60,945 bases of DNA. Source: a virus. The notes under the pieces are model-generated. The model had not been told where the DNA came from. It did not search any database and saw nothing but the letters and a program-made list of their open reading frames with translations. Made by a program: the position numbers and the translations under genes. The stretch is taken from IMG/VR virus record IMGVR_UViG_3300045988_098825, positions 1 through 60,945 of that record; one strand, 5' to 3'. Numbering within the stretch: the stretch's first letter is position 1; each line of letters opens with the position of its first letter. Of the stretch, positions 3,003 to 50,528 are shown piece by piece.

Positions 3003-3215
3003 TTGCGTTTTTCAGAGTTTACAAGACCAGAACTTGAAAGCATCACTGAAAACGCAAATTTTACAGAAGAAGAGCTGTTAGTGTTTAAAATGTTGACAAA
3101 AGGAAAGACTATTACAGAAATAGCACAAAAGACAAATGCGTGTAATCGCACAGTTAGCCGAAGAATTGAAAAAATAAAATCAAAAATAAATAGAATCGGA
3201 GGTTTGTCTATATGA
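3003..3215 (+). CDS. sigma-70 region-4 / LuxR-type HTH regulator
   Basis: TTG start after GAGGAGG; LTKGKTITEIAQKTNACNRTVSRRIEKIK helix-turn-helix. Confidence 0.55.
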   Translation: MRFSEFTRPELESITENANFTEEELLVFKMLTKGKTITEIAQKTNACNRTVSRRIEKIKSKINRIGGLSI

Positions 3216-3387
3216 CAGTTGTGCTTACACAGAATGGAAAAGAAATTAATCCAGAAGATGTAGTTTTGCCGTCAGAAGTGCTAAAGCTGATTGCAGAGTT
3301 GATTAATTGACGAAAAATTGATAATAGTGTAGAATGCGTCATGTAGTGAATATGGCGCATTCTTTTATATCTGATGGAGGAACGAGA

Positions 3388-4749
3388 ATGGAATGTGTCG
3401 CATATATGCGTGTTTCCACGGAGAAACAGGCAGAAGAGGGAAACGGATTAGACAGCCAAAGGAGAGATATTGAAAACTATTGCAGAAAAAATGAACTGGT
3501 AATTACAGATTGGTACATTGATGATGGGTATACAGGCGCAAATATGGACAGACCAGAATTGCAAAGGCTTGTATCAGACTGTGATCGTAAGCGTGTAGGC
3601 TATGTTGTTGCTTTCAAACTGGACAGAATATCACGTAGCATGGTAGACGGTATTTATCTAATTGAAAGAGTATTCCTTAAAAATAATGTGGAGTTTAAGT
3701 GTGTACATGACAGTATCAGCTATGATAATCCTATGGAGCAGGCTTATACACAGATGATGGCAGTATTCGCACAACTGGACAAGAATACAATGCTGTTGCG
3801 TATGCGTGGTGGAATGTTGGAGCGTGTCAAACAAGGCTACTGGATGGGCGGTGGAAATCTTCCATACTGCTATACATACAGCAAAGATACAGGAACACTT
3901 ATACCAATTCCAGAACGCAAGGAACAGGCAAACAAAGCAATGGATTTATTCTTGCAAGGATATTCAGACGTAAAAATCCGTGATATGTTAGGATTTAAAA
4001 GCGAATTTGTTGTGAAGCAAGTACTCACAAGCCCTGTAAACATTGGAATGATACCGTATAAGGGGAATATCTATCAGGGATTGCATGAACCTATATTTAA
4101 TAAGGAAGTGTTTGAAAAAGCCCAACAATTCAGAGCAATAAGGAAAAACAAAAGGGCAAGTTGCCATAACATCCAAACTAACTTATTGACAGGTTTATGC
4201 TATTGTGGAATCTGTGGATGCGCTATGAGGTATCAGAAATGGACGCATGGAAAGCATAAGATTTACTGTTGTTCCAGGAATAAGGACTTGCATTATCTTC
4301 CTAACCACAATCCAAATTGTAATAATACTTTGGAATGGGCTTCAGATATTGAAAAAGCTGTAGAGAACGAAATACTTTTAATATCTGCCAATATATCAGA
4401 CTATAAGCCAAGAGTAAAAGAATCTAAATTGGAAATATTGCAAGGGCAACTAGAAAAAGAGCAGACTAAGCGTAAAAGGCTATATAACCTGTATGCAGAG
4501 GGCAATGATGATGTTATCAGCATGATTAAAGAAATTGAGAAAGTAATAGAAGATATCCGTAAACAGATCAAGGAAGAATCTGCAATAGAAACAAATAAAA
4601 CTAGACAAAATGTATTTAAGAACATAAAAAATCTTGCCGACATTTGGGAAGATATCGACAAGAAACAAAAAAATATGTTACTAAAAAGTATAATTGAAAA
4701 AATCGTAATTAGCAATGGAAATATTGAGATAAAATTGAAAGATTTTTAG
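3388..4749 (+). CDS. large serine recombinase (integrase)
   Basis: Resolvase-type N-terminus with AYMRVSTEKQ catalytic-Ser motif, Cys-rich zinc ribbon (CYCGICG..YCCS) and C-terminal coiled coil. GGAGGA precedes ATG 3388. Confidence 0.92.
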   Translation: MECVAYMRVSTEKQAEEGNGLDSQRRDIENYCRKNELVITDWYIDDGYTGANMDRPELQRLVSDCDRKRVGYVVAFKLDRISRSMVDGIYLIERVFLKNNVEFKCVHDSISYDNPMEQAYTQMMAVFAQLDKNTMLLRMRGGMLERVKQGYWMGGGNLPYCYTYSKDTGTLIPIPERKEQANKAMDLFLQGYSDVKIRDMLGFKSEFVVKQVLTSPVNIGMIPYKGNIYQGLHEPIFNKEVFEKAQQFRAIRKNKRASCHNIQTNLLTGLCYCGICGCAMRYQKWTHGKHKIYCCSRNKDLHYLPNHNPNCNNTLEWASDIEKAVENEILLISANISDYKPRVKESKLEILQGQLEKEQTKRKRLYNLYAEGNDDVISMIKEIEKVIEDIRKQIKEESAIETNKTRQNVFKNIKNLADIWEDIDKKQKNMLLKSIIEKIVISNGNIEIKLKDF

Positions 4750-4780
4750 CACTACAATAATGCTATCCAATGGTATATAT

Positions 4781-4815
4781 TTACTGCTAATATAGATATA
4801 TTAATTTAGCAGTAA
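4781..4815. repeat. perfect 10-bp inverted repeat (TTACTGCTAA / TTAGCAGTAA) around a 15-bp AT spacer; candidate attP core
   Basis: Read directly; lies 32 nt after the integrase stop. Confidence 0.4.
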
Positions 4816-4877
4816 AATAGCGCCATACCTATGGCATGGGGTTAGTGCTAATGCGCATATTTACTACACTTTAGAGT

Positions 4878-4919
4878 CACTATAATGGCATTTATTTGTC
4901 ACTTATAGTGGCTTTTTTT
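4878..4919 (+). terminator. intrinsic terminator
   Basis: CACTATAA ... TTATAGTG stem followed by GCTTTTTTT. Confidence 0.55.
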
Positions 4920-4952
4920 ATTTTATGCTTATTACAAAGGGAGGAATAACCC

Positions 4953-5108
4953 ATGAATATTGAAACGGACGAAATCATAGAAAAGTTATGTGCTAGGGAA
5001 GATGTACAGGCGATACCGACAATCTACCAAGTAGCCATGACCCATGCGATACAGGAAGTATTAAAAGATGTTAATGAGAATATGCAATCAGCAGGAACAG
5101 ATTATTAA
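4953..5108 (+). CDS. small hypothetical protein (51 aa)
   Basis: GGGAGG RBS then ATG; MNIETDEIIEKLCARED... Confidence 0.3.
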   Translation: MNIETDEIIEKLCAREDVQAIPTIYQVAMTHAIQEVLKDVNENMQSAGTDY

Positions 5109-5173
5109 ATACCTATCTTATGATGATACGAACATATTATATGAGACTGAAAAGCTGAAAAAGGAGAACCAAT

Positions 5174-5659
5174 ATGCAACCGTATGTGAATCCATATTAC
5201 CTACAGCAGAACCAGCAGGTCTATCCGCAGTATTATAACCCACTGGCACAGGTGCAAAACAGATCAATAGATTATCAGCAAAATATACCAAACAATTACC
5301 AGCAGAATCAGATTGTGCAGGGAATTAACGGAAAAATAATTGCGGAGCTGAGTCAGATAACAGCAAATGATGTACCTATGGACGGTAGTGTTGCATTTTT
5401 TCCAAAGCAAGACTTGTCAGAAGTATATGCCAAGAGCTGGAATGCAGACGGTACAATCCGCACAGTTACTTATAAGCCTGTTTTGGATAACGATCCTAAG
5501 ACAGCATCCGAACCAGAAAAAATTAAGTGTGACCTATCGGAAGAATCCGCACAGAATATTATGAACAAATTTGATGAAATATCTGACAGGCTGGGGCAGT
5601 TAGAAAAATCTTTGCAATCCCAAAGAAAAACTTCACAGACGCAAAGAAAGGATGATTAA
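5174..5659 (+). CDS. protein with Q/N/Y/P-rich prion-like N-terminus
   Basis: MQPYVNPYYLQQNQQVYPQYYNPLAQVQNRSIDYQQNIPNNYQQNQ...; AAGGAG RBS. Confidence 0.55.
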   Translation: MQPYVNPYYLQQNQQVYPQYYNPLAQVQNRSIDYQQNIPNNYQQNQIVQGINGKIIAELSQITANDVPMDGSVAFFPKQDLSEVYAKSWNADGTIRTVTYKPVLDNDPKTASEPEKIKCDLSEESAQNIMNKFDEISDRLGQLEKSLQSQRKTSQTQRKDD

Positions 5660-5661
5660 GT

Positions 5662-5898
5662 ATGTTTAATCCAATGCAGTTAATGCAGATGATGAAAAGT
5701 GGAAACCCACAGCAGATGGTACAACAGCTTATGGGGAACAGCCAGTTAATGCAGAATCCAATAGCCAAGAATGCTATGCAGATGGCACAGAACGGAGACA
5801 CCAAGGGCATTGAACAGATGGCTAGGAATCTGTGCAAAGAAAAGGGATTGAATCCTGATGAAGCAATGAACCAAATTAAAAGACAGTTTCACTTATAA
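5662..5898 (+). CDS. small Met/Gln-rich protein
   Basis: MFNPMQLMQMMKSGNPQQMVQQLMGNSQLMQNP...; starts 3 nt after the upstream stop. Confidence 0.5.
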   Translation: MFNPMQLMQMMKSGNPQQMVQQLMGNSQLMQNPIAKNAMQMAQNGDTKGIEQMARNLCKEKGLNPDEAMNQIKRQFHL

Positions 5899-5946
5899 AA
5901 GCTAATTCTTGCAAGATTAGAAATAAATTTAATGGAGGTAAAAAGT

Positions 5947-6705
5947 ATGTTTTCAAACAATTGTGCATCCGTTCCATTAGTCGCGAATATTGACGGAAAC
6001 GGAAATAACAACGGATGGGGCGCAGAAGGCTCATGGTTATGGTTCATTATCGTTATCTTCGCTATCTTCGGATGGGGTGGATTCGGTAACGGATTTGGAG
6101 GAAACGGAATGAATGGCGGTGTCGGAAGCGAAATTCAGCGCGGATTTGATAATCAGGCGGTTGTGTCAAAGCTTGATAGCATTACAAACGGACTTTGTGA
6201 CGGATTTTATGCAGTGCAAAACGGCATGAATGGCATCAACACAAACATTTTGCAGACCGGATTCGGCATTCAGCAGGCTATTAACGCTGATACGGTCGCT
6301 AATATGCAGAATACCAATGCTTTGCAGGCACAGCTTGCTAACTGTTGCTGTGAAACAAGAGAAGCTATCCAAGGCGTAAACTACAACATGGCAACTAACA
6401 CTTGCGCATTGCAGAACACCATGAACAGCAACACAAGAGACATTATCGACAGTCAGAACGCAGGAACACGCGCTATTCTTGATTATCTCTGCAATGAGAA
6501 GATCTCTAGCTTACAGGCAGAAAATAGCGACCTTCGTAGAGCGGCTTCACAGGATCGTCAGAGTGCACTGCTTACAACTCAGATGGCGGCACAGACACAG
6601 CAGATTATCAATGCAGTAAATCCGTCTGCTATCCCGGCATATGTTGTACCTAACCCAAATGCTTATGCATATGGATGCGGATGCAACACAGGTTGTAACT
6701 GCTAA
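5947..6705 (+). CDS. membrane-anchored Gly/Asn/Gln-rich protein with Cys-cluster C-terminus
   Basis: TM stretch WLWFIIVIFAIFGWGGFG, then GNGFGGNGMNGG, internal CCC, and tail AYAYGCGCNTGCNC. GGAGG lies 8 nt before ATG 5947. Confidence 0.55.
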   Translation: MFSNNCASVPLVANIDGNGNNNGWGAEGSWLWFIIVIFAIFGWGGFGNGFGGNGMNGGVGSEIQRGFDNQAVVSKLDSITNGLCDGFYAVQNGMNGINTNILQTGFGIQQAINADTVANMQNTNALQAQLANCCCETREAIQGVNYNMATNTCALQNTMNSNTRDIIDSQNAGTRAILDYLCNEKISSLQAENSDLRRAASQDRQSALLTTQMAAQTQQIINAVNPSAIPAYVVPNPNAYAYGCGCNTGCNC

Positions 6706-6827
6706 AACTAAATAATTGAGTATCTTAATTGAGTTTAACTCGATCATGTCTGCTATGCAGTATTACTTATAACCAAAGGGCAGACTGTAATGTTTGCCCT
6801 TATTTTTATGAAAGAGAGGTAAAAATT

Positions 6828-7247
6828 ATGGAAATTACAGCAATTGCATTACAAACCGTTGCCGCTGGAGAAGATGTGGCATTTACAGAAACGGCAGTAA
6901 ATGGAACAAAATGTATCTTACACAGACAGGGAAGCGGAATTATCAAGCTAAGAGGTATCACTAATCAGTGTAAGGCTAGATTTTTGGTATCGTATTCCGG
7001 TAACATTCAGATTCCGACAGGTGGCACAGTTGGAGAGATTTCACTTGCAATCGCAGTTGACGGAGAGCCTTTGCAGTCAACAAAGATGATCGTAACGCCA
7101 GCCGCAGTTGAGAATTTCTTTAACGTATCAGCACAGGCATATGTTGATGTGCCTTGCGGTTGTTGCAGTACCGTAGCCGTGCAGAATACGTCCACGCAGG
7201 CTATCGAGGTGCAGAACAGTAACTTAATCGCAACAAGGGAAGCATAA
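6828..7247 (+). CDS. small all-beta protein, BclA-C-terminal/TNF-like (exosporium-type) candidate
   Basis: Alternating beta-strand pattern with ..IPTGGTVGEISLAIAVDGEPL.. and VPCGCCSTVAVQNT. Family assignment is from memory only. Confidence 0.4.
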   Translation: MEITAIALQTVAAGEDVAFTETAVNGTKCILHRQGSGIIKLRGITNQCKARFLVSYSGNIQIPTGGTVGEISLAIAVDGEPLQSTKMIVTPAAVENFFNVSAQAYVDVPCGCCSTVAVQNTSTQAIEVQNSNLIATREA

Positions 7248-7260
7248 GGGGGCGTATATT

Positions 7261-7932
7261 ATGGATATCAAGAGAATGCATGATATGATCGAAAAACTGT
7301 CTGAATGTGCAAAGTCCGAATTTGACAAAGGCATTGAGAACGTGAATACGGATGAGATGGGAAAAGTAACAGATATGCTTAAAGACCTTGCGGAAGCCAT
7401 GTATTACCGTACATTGACAAACATCATGGAAGAATCTGACGTAGAAGATGTGCTGGGAATGCTTGACCGCAGATTTTATGACGATTACCGTTATAAGACT
7501 ACTGGCAGATATGCTCCAAAAGGCAGAGGTACGTATGTAGGCAGACGTGGTTATGAAGAACCACCATATATGCATATGATGAACAGGGAAGATTTACAAG
7601 ACTGGGATTCCATGTCTGAACGTGAGCGTATGCGTGACCTTGATAGGGCATCAAGAGGACGTATGTACTATACCGAGACAGAACCCATGCACAAAGACGG
7701 TAGCATGAGAGACAGCAGAGAGGGCAGGGCTGGCATGATGCGTAAAGGCTACATGGAAACAAAGGAAATGCACAAGGGAACTACCCCGCAGGACAAAGAA
7801 GCCAATATGCACAGCTTGGAAAGCTATCTGAAAGAATTATCTGAGGATTTGACAGGGTTACTGGCAGATATGACACCAGAAGAACGGCAAATGGCAAAGA
7901 CAAAGATTACCACACTTGCGGCTAAGATGTAA
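7261..7932 (+). CDS. protein with helical ends and an R/Y/M/G/D-rich disordered centre
   Basis: ..YDDYRYKTTGRYAPKGRGTYVGRRGYEEPPYMHMMNRE..; last gene of the cluster. Confidence 0.5.
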   Translation: MDIKRMHDMIEKLSECAKSEFDKGIENVNTDEMGKVTDMLKDLAEAMYYRTLTNIMEESDVEDVLGMLDRRFYDDYRYKTTGRYAPKGRGTYVGRRGYEEPPYMHMMNREDLQDWDSMSERERMRDLDRASRGRMYYTETEPMHKDGSMRDSREGRAGMMRKGYMETKEMHKGTTPQDKEANMHSLESYLKELSEDLTGLLADMTPEERQMAKTKITTLAAKM

Positions 7933-7938
7933 GGAAAT

Positions 7939-7967
7939 AGGCTAGGGCTAATAACTCTAGCCTTTTT
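7939..7967 (+). terminator. intrinsic terminator closing the 5174-7932 cluster
   Basis: AGGCTAG ... CTAGCCT stem followed by TTTTT. Confidence 0.7.
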
Positions 7968-18090: not shown

Positions 18091-18164
18091 CAGAATGTAG
18101 CGCAGTCGGTTAGAGCACCTGTCTTATATACAGGCGGTCGCAGGTTCGATTCCTGCCATTCTGA
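18091..18164 (+). tRNA. tRNA-Ile (anticodon UAU)
   Basis: Cloverleaf by eye: CAGAATG/CATTCTG acceptor, GCGC..GAGC D-arm (one mismatch), CCTGT CTTATAT ACAGG anticodon arm, GCAGG TTCGATT CCTGC T-arm. No encoded CCA. Confidence 0.85.
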
Positions 18165-45570: not shown

Positions 45571-45599
45571 TTGACATATGCAAACATACATTCTATAAT
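45571..45599 (+). promoter_or_regulatory. perfect-consensus sigma-70 promoter
   Basis: TTGACA, 17 nt, TATAAT. Confidence 0.7.
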
Positions 45600-45629
45600 T
45601 AGTACAAACATTATAGAGAGGATGATTGC

Positions 45630-46074: not shown

Positions 46075-46323
46075 TTTTATTATCTTTTCTAAAGGAGAAT
46101 TGCGCTTTATGGCTTCTACGCCATAGGGCGTTATTCTTATACCCTCTAAATCATATCTTACAACATATTTTTTCTCTTCTAATTCATTAATCAATGGCAT
46201 AATTTCTATGCCAGTCACATCTAACTTATCAAATAAATCAGAGTACTTAGTTTCACCGTTTTGGTCTTTAAATTTATTTATAGCTTTTAACAGTTTATAT
46301 TCATCAATCATTTTCCATACCAT
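45964..46323 (-). CDS. winged-helix-like protein with C-terminal TM anchor, co-transcribed with the repressor
   Basis: ..IIIGIIGVIGVIIGGIITAHILGQ tail; overlaps the repressor stop by 20 nt. Confidence 0.55.
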   Translation of the reverse strand: MVWKMIDEYKLLKAINKFKDQNGETKYSDLFDKLDVTGIEIMPLINELEEKKYVVRYDLEGIRITPYGVEAIKRNSPLEKIIKLFQDSTKFTFQQIIIGIIGVIGVIIGGIITAHILGQ

Positions 46324-46657
46324 CCATTATCATATTAACAGCAGACAATATCTTTTCTCTTTTCTCTTTGGATAATTTAAAATATTTTAGCAAAAAATTA
46401 TTCATATTCTTATCTGCTCTTATCATTGAAACAAGTTTTGCATTTTCTGGTGAAAAACTTGGATTTTCCTCACCCGTTCTAAGATAATCAGTAGAGACAT
46501 TCAAATATTCAGCAATAATTCCTAACCTATCATCTCTAATAACACCTTTTTTTAATCCGCTTATATAAGCGTTTCCAAATCCGCAATCTGATTCCAATTT
46601 TGCTAAAGCAATACCTCTTTCTTTACATATAGTTTTTACTCTTTCAACAGTGTTCAT
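46304..46657 (-). CDS. CI-like XRE-family repressor with no peptidase domain
   Basis: HTH ..IALAKLESDCGFGNAYISGLKKG..; GGAG RBS; divergent from the Cro-like gene. Confidence 0.8.
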   Translation of the reverse strand: MNTVERVKTICKERGIALAKLESDCGFGNAYISGLKKGVIRDDRLGIIAEYLNVSTDYLRTGEENPSFSPENAKLVSMIRADKNMNNFLLKYFKLSKEKREKILSAVNMIMDGMEND

Positions 46658-46699: not shown

Positions 46700-46728
46700 T
46701 TGACAAATTAGAGAACACTCTATATAAT
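46700..46728 (+). promoter_or_regulatory. rightward (lytic) promoter
   Basis: TTGACA, 17 nt (contains TTAGAGAA), TATAAT. Confidence 0.65.
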
Positions 46729-46739
46729 GAAATTAGGAT

Positions 46740-46757
46740 TTAGAGAAAAGCCTAAAT
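46740..46757. promoter_or_regulatory. operator-like 18-mer, copy 2
   Basis: TTAGAGAAAAGCCTAAAT. Confidence 0.55.
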
Positions 46758-50090: not shown

Positions 50091-50528
50091 AAACAGAATT
50101 AAATGTGAGTCAATGTACTCAAAGATACTCAAAATCCAGAGTATTAGTCGGTAACTTAAAACCACTGAAATCATAGGAAAGATAAGCCAGTACAAGTTGA
50201 AATAGTCTTGTTAACTATAGGGTAGAACCTTGATGGTAAAGATTGAGTAATGGTAGAAGTCTACGAAAACCAAGTAGCAAAAAAAATATTAAGAAAGGAA
50301 AAGCTATTTAGATGAAAACCTGTATTTAATCAATAAAAAAGAATTTATAGGTATGTACCGATGGCTTAGTCGGGAATTTACGACTGTGGAGTGTACAAGA
50401 ACTTGTGAGTAGTGTGTCACTTGCGACCACCAAAGCATACACGATGAAGCAGTAACTACAAATTGTGAGATTGTAGCGAATCATCTAGCATATACATTTG
50501 TATATGTTTTTAGTAGCAGAGTGAGAAC

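Follow-up and report, generated by a model that had tools for sequence, protein, structure and literature searches.

A widespread accessory gene cassette of gut phages with a predicted helical stalk protein and a predicted jelly-roll head protein

The stretch of DNA analysed here, called the window throughout, is IMG/VR virus record IMGVR_UViG_3300045988_098825 over its full length (60,945 nt; all positions refer to it), and the subject is a group of small, co-oriented genes directly past a large serine integrase gene and a candidate attP (Table 1). Five such genes, here named A to E, had been pointed out in an initial annotation made from the letters alone, and this arrangement was borne out by the open reading frame (ORF) listing, the domains of the integrase and the candidate attP; with one further small ORF upstream, gene 0, the group becomes a six-gene cassette. 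The calls of A, B, C and E stood as listed and that of D did not: its start, TTG 6729, is an artefact and was replaced by ATG 6828, which follows a Shine-Dalgarno-like AGAGAGG, the homologues being 139–140 aa long. The terminator placed after E was recovered as a hairpin with T-run, and G+C over 6–8 kb is 0.43–0.445, against 0.33–0.38 in the neighbours and the integrase region. The cassette is accessory and uncharacterised, and the libraries and papers searched describe nothing comparable to it as a whole.

Table 1. Coordinates of the cassette and of the features around it in the window
Feature	Position	Strand	Remarks
Large serine integrase	3334–4749	+	Resolvase (Pfam 5.5e-32), Recombinase, Zn_ribbon_recom; PHROG 95 integrase 1.5e-104
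Candidate attP core	4780–4816	.	Perfect 11-nt inverted repeat 4780–4790/4806–4816, 15-nt spacer
Weak sigma-70-like match	4896–4924	+	TTGTCA-17-TATTTT, 9/12 consensus positions, 5' of cassette
Gene 0	4953–5108	+	51-aa ORF 5' of A, strong ribosome-binding site
A	5174–5659	+	ORF listing
B	5662–5898	+	ORF listing
C	5932–6705	+	ORF listing
Conserved C–D intergenic element	6706–6827	+	GTATCTTAAT block, mini-ORF MSAMQYYL, hairpin + T-run, ribosome-binding site of D
D	6828–7247	+	ATG 6828 start, 139 aa
E	7261–7932	+	ORF listing
Terminator-like hairpin + T-run	7939–7963	+	Closes cassette after E

Residue counts agreed with the low-complexity and Cys-rich compositions that had been ascribed to the products of A to E. 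Scans against Pfam, NCBIfam, PADLOC and PHROGs gave a functional family for none of the five proteins: A, C and D fall in PHROGs of unknown function (phrog_21718 at 2.5e-12, phrog_16490 at 1.2e-58 and phrog_20016 at 2e-66, respectively), and PADLOC returned weak coiled-coil noise only (ZorA, E 0.011) and no defence match. Sequence and profile searches against the PDB gave nothing meaningful for A, for E or for one alternative protein of the D position (type 2, see below). With no known virion, replication or defence family matched, the products are, as first remarked, unlike phage structural or replication proteins. In a scan for hydrophobicity and signals, a segment of transmembrane grade was seen in C only, and A, B, D and E were without signal peptide.

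C, the putative stalk, contains 11 Cys. Its hydrophobic segment reaches 1.78 on the Kyte-Doolittle scale over 19 residues (residues 34–52), and the AlphaFold2 (AF2) model built from 66 diverse homologues (m86e9c7695f4e; pLDDT 70 overall, >90 at residues 150–240) runs from a disordered N-terminal tail through a short transmembrane helix (34–45) and a Gly-rich loop to a predicted unbroken helix at 77–229 (~153 residues, ~23 nm) and a disordered tail. Across the family W35, W48 and the flanking glycines are near-invariant in a hydrophobic, Gly-zipper-like helix; CCC at 138–140, inside QLAxCCCExRxAIQGVNYNxAT, is invariant; S206 and Q207 are among the invariant or near-invariant positions; and the tail keeps a PxPxPAYxVPNP motif followed by a Cys cluster, GCGCxxGCxC. 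Foldseek with the C model gave no match, as expected of a single long helix, and no C–D fusion was found among the long C representatives inspected. In profile searches, HA2 of influenza (fusion peptide plus coiled coil) came up repeatedly and stayed sub-threshold (E 0.1–2); these matches probably explain the labels 'spike protein/glycoprotein' and 'outer capsid protein/viral fiber' on C homologues of crAss-like phages.

Some members of the C family depart from this plan. At residues ~18–44, the N-termini of Bacteroidales-type C proteins (L023, L024 and L025) carry SLCQNRGLDPNMV, which resembles the C-terminal ArNLCkekGlnPde of B; the match of that B motif to the N-terminus of Bacteroidales C proteins is weak (i-E 0.0015–0.02), and by sequence these C proteins may be B–C fusions. 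Of the representatives P0420 (399 aa) and P0400 (333 aa), one is fused after CCC to a GDS(L)-type hydrolase-like region, which may be a chimera or a misassembly, and in the other the CCC motif is duplicated in tandem. On a scaffold of Firmicutes bacterium CAG:882 (L008:1565-2860), a ~1.2-kb insert with a 291-aa GIY-YIG-like ORF splits C at the invariant CCC codons (window 6343–6351); it is probably a group I intron or a homing-endonuclease insertion, and Rfam gave no group I intron at gathering score on the interrupted gene.

D contains 5 Cys, including those of VPCGCCST, in which P-x-G-C-C is conserved. The AF2 model (63-sequence alignment) is all-beta at pLDDT 91.3 and pTM 0.85, and folds as a ten-strand TNF/C1q jelly roll that Foldseek placed with 9h38, 1wck, 8d02, 7r1m and TNF ligands, with a probability of 1.00 in each case. 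Among PDB entries the Bacillus exosporium proteins came top (F-BclA C-terminal domain 9h38 at E 4e-8, BxpB 8d02, ExsFA 7r1m/7r5i/9h3d and BclA 1wck; E 4e-8 to 6e-6, TM 0.67–0.77, sequence identity 7–15%), followed by the TNF ligands EDA and 4-1BBL, C1q and phage receptor-binding domains (8ke9, 9eul, 9k09). Among viral models (BFVD), the best matches were stand-alone proteins of 130–142 aa from gut sipho-, myo- and podoviruses (TM 0.81–0.92), some of them already labelled 'BclA protein'. The guess that this small beta-rich protein recalls BclA C-terminal or TNF-like domains therefore holds at the level of the fold. In profile scans, Pfam gave only a spurious DUF3573 at E<=1 and no BclA_C (PF18573), NCBIfam gave none, and phmmer against the PDB gave none; going by the model, D is a sequence orphan that joins a known fold as a new member.

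The place of D behind the conserved C is taken in different loci by at least three unrelated or very diverged, Cys-containing, beta-rich proteins of ~140 aa, a pattern of exchange that is typical of binding heads. Type 2 proteins of this slot begin MSCKPSCRLC..., and against curated libraries the alternative proteins of the D and E slots matched only DUF7841 and unnamed PHROGs. Between C and D lies a conserved intergenic element, whose terminator-like hairpin (6776–6801) with T-run was kept in 11 of 11 diverse loci, with a compensatory change in one pair; the element may be an attenuator that sets the ratio of C to D and E. The mini-ORF in it, which starts MSA(M/K)QYY, has 7–21 codons and is fused in frame to D in L008, L144 and L004.

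The remaining products are of low complexity or helical. Residues 1–50 of A hold 14 Q, 8 Y, 8 N and 5 P; this N-terminus is followed by a small conserved domain (~50–100), a C-terminal helix and a basic tail. A was found in 19 loci, 5' of B–C in most, and a Pfam scan of 16 A homologues gave no family. B (78 aa, helical; 17% Q, 15% M) carries NPxQ(M/F) repeats and an ArNLCkekG motif and was found in 16 loci, adjoining C in most. Its sole match in the PDB, 'Gogy' 7bqq (E 3e-5), which we take to be a de novo design, was treated as compositional. A reading of B as an STI1/ubiquilin-like domain was rejected: it had a compositional resemblance and the crAss label 'ubiquitin-like' behind it, and no profile supports it. 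E has an R/Y/M/G/D-rich low-complexity core between N- and C-terminal helices (18 R, 12 M, 11 G and 10 Y in residues 70–175), and E-slot proteins of distant loci have the motif RRxRDSxGRY in common. In three of these (L014:5586-6266, L021:9158-9874 and L016:2997-3641), DUF7841 (E 5e-20 to 2.5e-5) was seen C-terminal to an R/Y/D/G-rich region; a literature search gave no paper mentioning DUF7841. The exact sequence of gene 0 is present on >100 contigs, and a gene 0-like ORF of 50 aa occupies the same place in L108–L111, L108 being an unrelated Roseburia faecis prophage.

The C family comprises 1,625 clusters at 50% identity (E<=1e-3), or 834 at E<=1e-10, and the cassette family occurs in thousands of near-identical copies in human-gut assemblies, across thousands of gut phages. 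Carriers of C include Lachnospiraceae prophages (Roseburia faecis, Lachnospira intestinalis), metagenome-assembled genomes assigned to Oscillospiraceae, Christensenellales and Bacilli, lytic-type Clostridium perfringens phages, the lytic-cycle Butyrivibrio phage Ceridwen (which also has a D homologue of 50% identity), Bacteroides uniformis phage C3_41T2LP, many crAss-like phages and two viruses assigned to Methanomassiliicoccales. Most of ~27 diverse loci keep the order A-B-C-D-E, in whole or in large part; in five of these, of Bacteroidales/crAss type, C only was detected. Its usual place is behind lysis or tail genes, either adjoining tail or tail-fibre genes or closing the late/lysis operon. 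The cassette follows holin/endolysin genes in bajarodcaudo virus 5, L022 and Dulem viruses 33 and 40, and lies farther past the endolysin in Ceridwen; it stands beside tail, diversity-generating retroelement (DGR) or LysB-like (P2 i-spanin-like) genes in cr52_1, vir215, vir335 and L021, and at the prophage edge in L108, in L009 and in the window. In the predicted Methanomassiliicoccales viruses vir215 (L112, 4641–5522) and vir335 (L113, 4632–5555), the C homologue adjoins a phrog_5302 tail protein, and vir215 also has a DGR-type reverse transcriptase. In crAss-like cr52_1 (L026, 4707–5630), an Mtd-like tail protein and a reverse transcriptase are encoded a few genes upstream of C; translated with table 11, this C gene runs into in-frame stops, a sign that it may be recoded.

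A stretch of ~1.5 kb (window 5702–7240; the 3' part of B, C in full, and D) is ~90% identical in dozens of otherwise unrelated phages, and codon differences between the window and the Roseburia faecis prophage are mostly silent (35 synonymous and 7 non-synonymous in C, 32 and 4 in D), which together indicate that the cassette is mobile and that purifying selection on it is strong. The sharp edges of the B-C-D block could be due to homing with co-conversion. Free-standing endonuclease ORFs lie between cassette genes (B|C, D|E) or after D at L126:9597-10535(-), L173:11082-11930, L002:7091-7954 and L115:5067-5618(-); those of L126, L173 and L002 were read as HNH/AP2-like by motif only, and that of L115 bears the annotation 'endonuclease'.

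On the basis of composition and position, the initial annotation had proposed a phage module that remodels the spore surface of the host, which would amount to a lysogenic-conversion module of the sporulating mother cell that builds a BclA/ExsF-like, Cys/Tyr-cross-linked spore-surface layer or appendage. Exosporium proteins are the best solved structural matches of D, the products are rich in Cys, Tyr, Gln and Gly, the cassette sits at a prophage edge, and Spo0A is present in the probable host lineage (Roseburia faecis locus L108); the products also resemble coat and exosporium proteins in having no signal peptides, and the outer forespore membrane could hold C as an anchor. However, the C family occurs in Bacteroides, crAss-like and predicted archaeal viruses, and D in the lytic phage Ceridwen of Butyrivibrio, a non-spore-former. 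Clostridium perfringens, host of lytic-type C carriers, does form spores. No sigma E/K/F/G consensus was found upstream of the cassette (4750–5175) or of D (6700–6830), in a scan with the B. subtilis-type consensus, which may not transfer to Lachnospiraceae. Of the regulators cited in support, the Spo0A-C-like gene was not recovered (phmmer with host Spo0A gave none among 393 window ORFs, and PF08769 was absent from the 49 Pfam-scanned ORFs); one of the two sigma-like genes was confirmed (sigma-region-4/GerE-type, 3003–3215) and the second was not seen. Pfam and NCBIfam scans of the five proteins showed no BclA_C, exosporium leader TIGR03720, collagen repeats, DUF3992 or DUF4183, and the TNF/C1q fold of D is also common in phage receptor-binding tips. 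Because virulent phages and phages of non-spore-formers are among the carriers, and because sequence features of BclA filaments and endospore appendages (ENA) and a sporulation-sigma consensus are absent, the spore surface is unlikely as the general role of the cassette, and a mother-cell module of this kind is regarded as very improbable. 'Another self-assembling envelope layer', named as a fallback, is compatible with these results.

The likeness to the exosporium of the Bacillus cereus group is thus one of fold: D has the all-beta jelly roll of the BclA/F-BclA C-terminal domain and of BxpB/ExsFA, and like ExsFA/BxpB it is a stand-alone protein of ~140 aa without signal peptide. In contrast to the BclA nap filament, no collagen GXY stalk is fused to D, and what may be its stalk is alpha-helical and belongs to another, membrane-anchored protein; moreover the cassette is phage-encoded, including in phages of non-spore-formers. 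Endospore appendages (S/L-ENA with DUF3992, F-ENA with DUF4183) share small jelly-roll subunits, CC motifs and Cys-containing N-terminal connectors with the cassette, and ENA fibres carry a C1q-like tip protein (PMC12357932). They differ in that D and the D-slot proteins of types 2 and 3 are without DUF3992 or DUF4183 in Pfam, that the type 2 profile found nothing in the PDB, and that the cassette extends beyond Firmicutes.

The adjacency to lysis genes raises a further alternative, that of a lysis accessory with membrane fusion or disruption, spanin-like or of the 'fusion-peptide plus coiled coil' kind, in which C would act at the last step of lysis. Consistent with this, the cassette is directly downstream of holin/endolysin in four of the loci named above, a LysB-like gene stands beside it in cr52_1, the N-terminal transmembrane helix of C leads into a long helix, and HA2 profiles recurred, weakly and without significance. 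The probable Lachnospiraceae hosts, as monoderms, have no outer membrane to fuse; in the window the cassette is ~21 kb from the putative holin region; cr52_1 already has its LysB-like gene; the TNF-like and low-complexity partners have no counterpart in known lysis pathways; and no lipoprotein partner was seen. The comparison with two-component spanins (Rz/Rz1, P2 LysB/LysC) and class I fusion proteins runs in the same way. The predicted architecture of C, an N-terminal transmembrane segment before a long, Cys-containing helical ectodomain, is compatible with theirs, and C shares with them the frequent lysis-gene neighbourhood and a Gly/aromatic-rich hydrophobic segment; it has no sequence relation to the Rz/LysB families, the five partner products are without N-terminal hydrophobic signal or lipobox-type leader, extra TNF-like and low-complexity partners are present, the likeness to HA2 is sub-threshold, and the carriers include phages of monoderm and predicted archaeal hosts, the window's relatives being Lachnospiraceae prophages. 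Such a role in lysis is considered improbable.

A resident role in the lysogen is suggested by the edge of the prophage. The arms of the inverted repeat at the candidate attP are TTTACTGCTAA and TTAGCAGTAAA, 16 related IMG/VR contigs end 3–180 nt past the integrase stop, and the relatives L106 and L094 start at positions equivalent to window 4745 and 4828. The repeat and these contig ends and starts place attP just past the integrase, so that in the prophage the integrase marks the right end and the cassette comes first inside attL, as it does in Roseburia faecis L108 and in L009. Contig ends ~1.1 kb 5' of C were also tried as an attP signal and rejected, the contigs being different phages that share only window 5702–7240. 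Among phages of the same integrase family with enough downstream sequence, the cassette was present in 49 of 54; in L154 (8407–9037), of that family, an ImmA-like gene follows the integrase directly, and this natural minus variant marks the cassette as accessory and dispensable. Prophage edge, terminator-like hairpins, deviant G+C and natural absence in L154 are the marks of a moron, and the remark that the genes occupy a lysogenic-conversion slot was sustained to that extent. A hairpin with T-run (4898–4912) is overlapped by the weak sigma-70-like match, and a comparable one lies 5' of the cassette in L108; no 11-mer is shared between the cassette leader and the other promoters of the window.

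These features fit a complex that resides in the membrane of the infected cell or of the lysogen, in which bitopic C would span the wall or the periplasm for superinfection exclusion (a block of DNA entry) or for control of egress, with D, A and E working on the cytoplasmic side of C or separately. The transmembrane-grade helix with its near-invariant W35, W48 and Gly speaks for such a complex, as do the predicted ~23-nm helix, about as long as a wall or periplasm is wide, the first place inside attL in Roseburia faecis and other prophages, the cassette's own terminators and G+C, and its dispensability in L154. There is precedent in the sie genes of lactococcal phages, which are located between integrase and repressor. 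On the other hand, known exclusion systems are single small proteins, as against the 5–6 co-conserved genes here; the cassette is also found in virulent crAss-like phages and in lytic-cycle Ceridwen; an exchangeable D slot is not what exclusion or egress would lead one to expect; PADLOC gave no match; and no convincing vegetative promoter was seen (best 9/12, at 4896–4924). A resident complex is possible, yet on balance rather doubtful.

The reading preferred here, to which a probability of about 0.35 is given, is that of a Cys-stapled stalk-and-knob fibre with an exchangeable head and cytoplasmic assembly, and not of a spore-specific device. C would oligomerise, probably as a trimer, into a helical stalk, and its Pro-rich tail would dock into the inter-subunit clefts of the D head, which is probably trimeric. 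The ExsF trimer binds a Pro-rich exosporium leader peptide (F-Anchor 14–35) in a comparable way and so offers a precedent for this docking (PMC12357932). The Cys of C (CCC, GCGC) and of D (GCC) would staple the assembly once it is outside the reducing cytoplasm, B may keep the hydrophobic, Gly-rich N-terminus of C soluble or deliver it, and A and E may serve as scaffolds or adaptors. Since A, B, D and E are without signal peptide, any assembly with D must be cytoplasmic, so the complex is pictured as forming in the infected or induced cell; after lysis it would act extracellularly, carried by the virion or by membrane fragments and serving as an accessory fibre for binding. It is the exchangeable head, the neighbouring tail genes and DGR targets, the exchange of the cassette between phages and the missing export signals of the partners that favour a binding appendage acting after lysis.

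Viral fibres with TNF-like knobs are well known, among them the PRD1 spike P5, the Sf6-type tail-needle knob (on a ~24-nm trimeric coiled coil) and the adenovirus and reovirus fibres. The cassette resembles these in a predicted helical stalk, about as long as theirs, that would carry a jelly-roll head, in the variable head on a conserved stalk, in its frequent place beside tail genes and in the names 'spike protein' or 'viral fiber' that crAss annotators have given to C. It differs from them in that stalk and head are separate genes, that the stalk has a Gly-zipper N-terminus of transmembrane grade, that three extra low-complexity or helper genes are co-conserved, and that the cassette is dispensable and often outside the structural operon.

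Several observations weigh against a fibre. A conserved transmembrane-grade helix is unusual in a virion fibre and better suits a resident membrane protein; if C is oriented N-in/C-out, as is hinted by a few extra K/R before that helix and by the B-like motif on the N-termini of Bacteroidales C proteins, stalk and cytoplasmic D meet only after lysis. The heptad periodicity of the C helix is weak, and its N-terminal half has pLDDT 50–80. In the window ~14 kb separate the cassette from the packaging and structural genes downstream of it, and its neighbours are the integrase and ImmA-like genes; this is where a moron, rather than a tail fibre, would be placed. Comparison by hhalign of A and E of the Firmicutes type with the neighbours of the Bacteroidales cassette was not significant, and cross-phylum homology of these partners is thus unsupported; a literature search found no virion proteomics for the carrier phage Ceridwen. 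The transmembrane helix, the moron-like position, the dispensability, the own terminators and the adjacency to lysis genes keep the alternatives set out above alive.

Elsewhere in the window, an RAGATH-18 RNA (73.4 bits) and a tRNA gene were found at 50383–50455 and 18091–18164, respectively. Perfect TTGACA-17-TATAAT promoters (45594–45622 and 46723–46751) flank a CI-like helix-turn-helix repressor gene at 46304–46657(-), a region that is likely the lysogeny switch, far from the integrase.

Taken more widely, the cassette may represent an undescribed, self-contained structural system of tailed gut viruses that spans the host phyla Bacillota and Bacteroidota and perhaps, with the predicted Methanomassiliicoccales viruses, more than one host domain, a proposal that is put forward tentatively and with less than even odds. 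Such a system would consist of a membrane-inserting, Cys-knotted helical stalk, interchangeable jelly-roll heads, a Met/Gln-rich holdase and two prion-like or RGY-rich scaffolds, and would spread between phages by cassette exchange with the help of homing endonucleases. The only common denominator of the carriers is the gut, so instead of serving a host-specific step the cassette could attach to surfaces or particles in the gut, or shield virions.

The spore-surface reading, attractive but misleading, is largely removed by these results. What is left is a very large family that is nevertheless of 'unknown function' in every curated library. Its presence, under strong purifying selection, in predicted archaeal viruses as well as in virulent crAss-like phages and in temperate prophages of Lachnospiraceae points to a role in the gut that is important and does not depend on the host. 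Should the cassette encode a stalk-and-knob binding fibre with a swappable head, it would lend itself easily to structure determination and to engineering, and would be a newly recognised factor in what gut phages adhere to.

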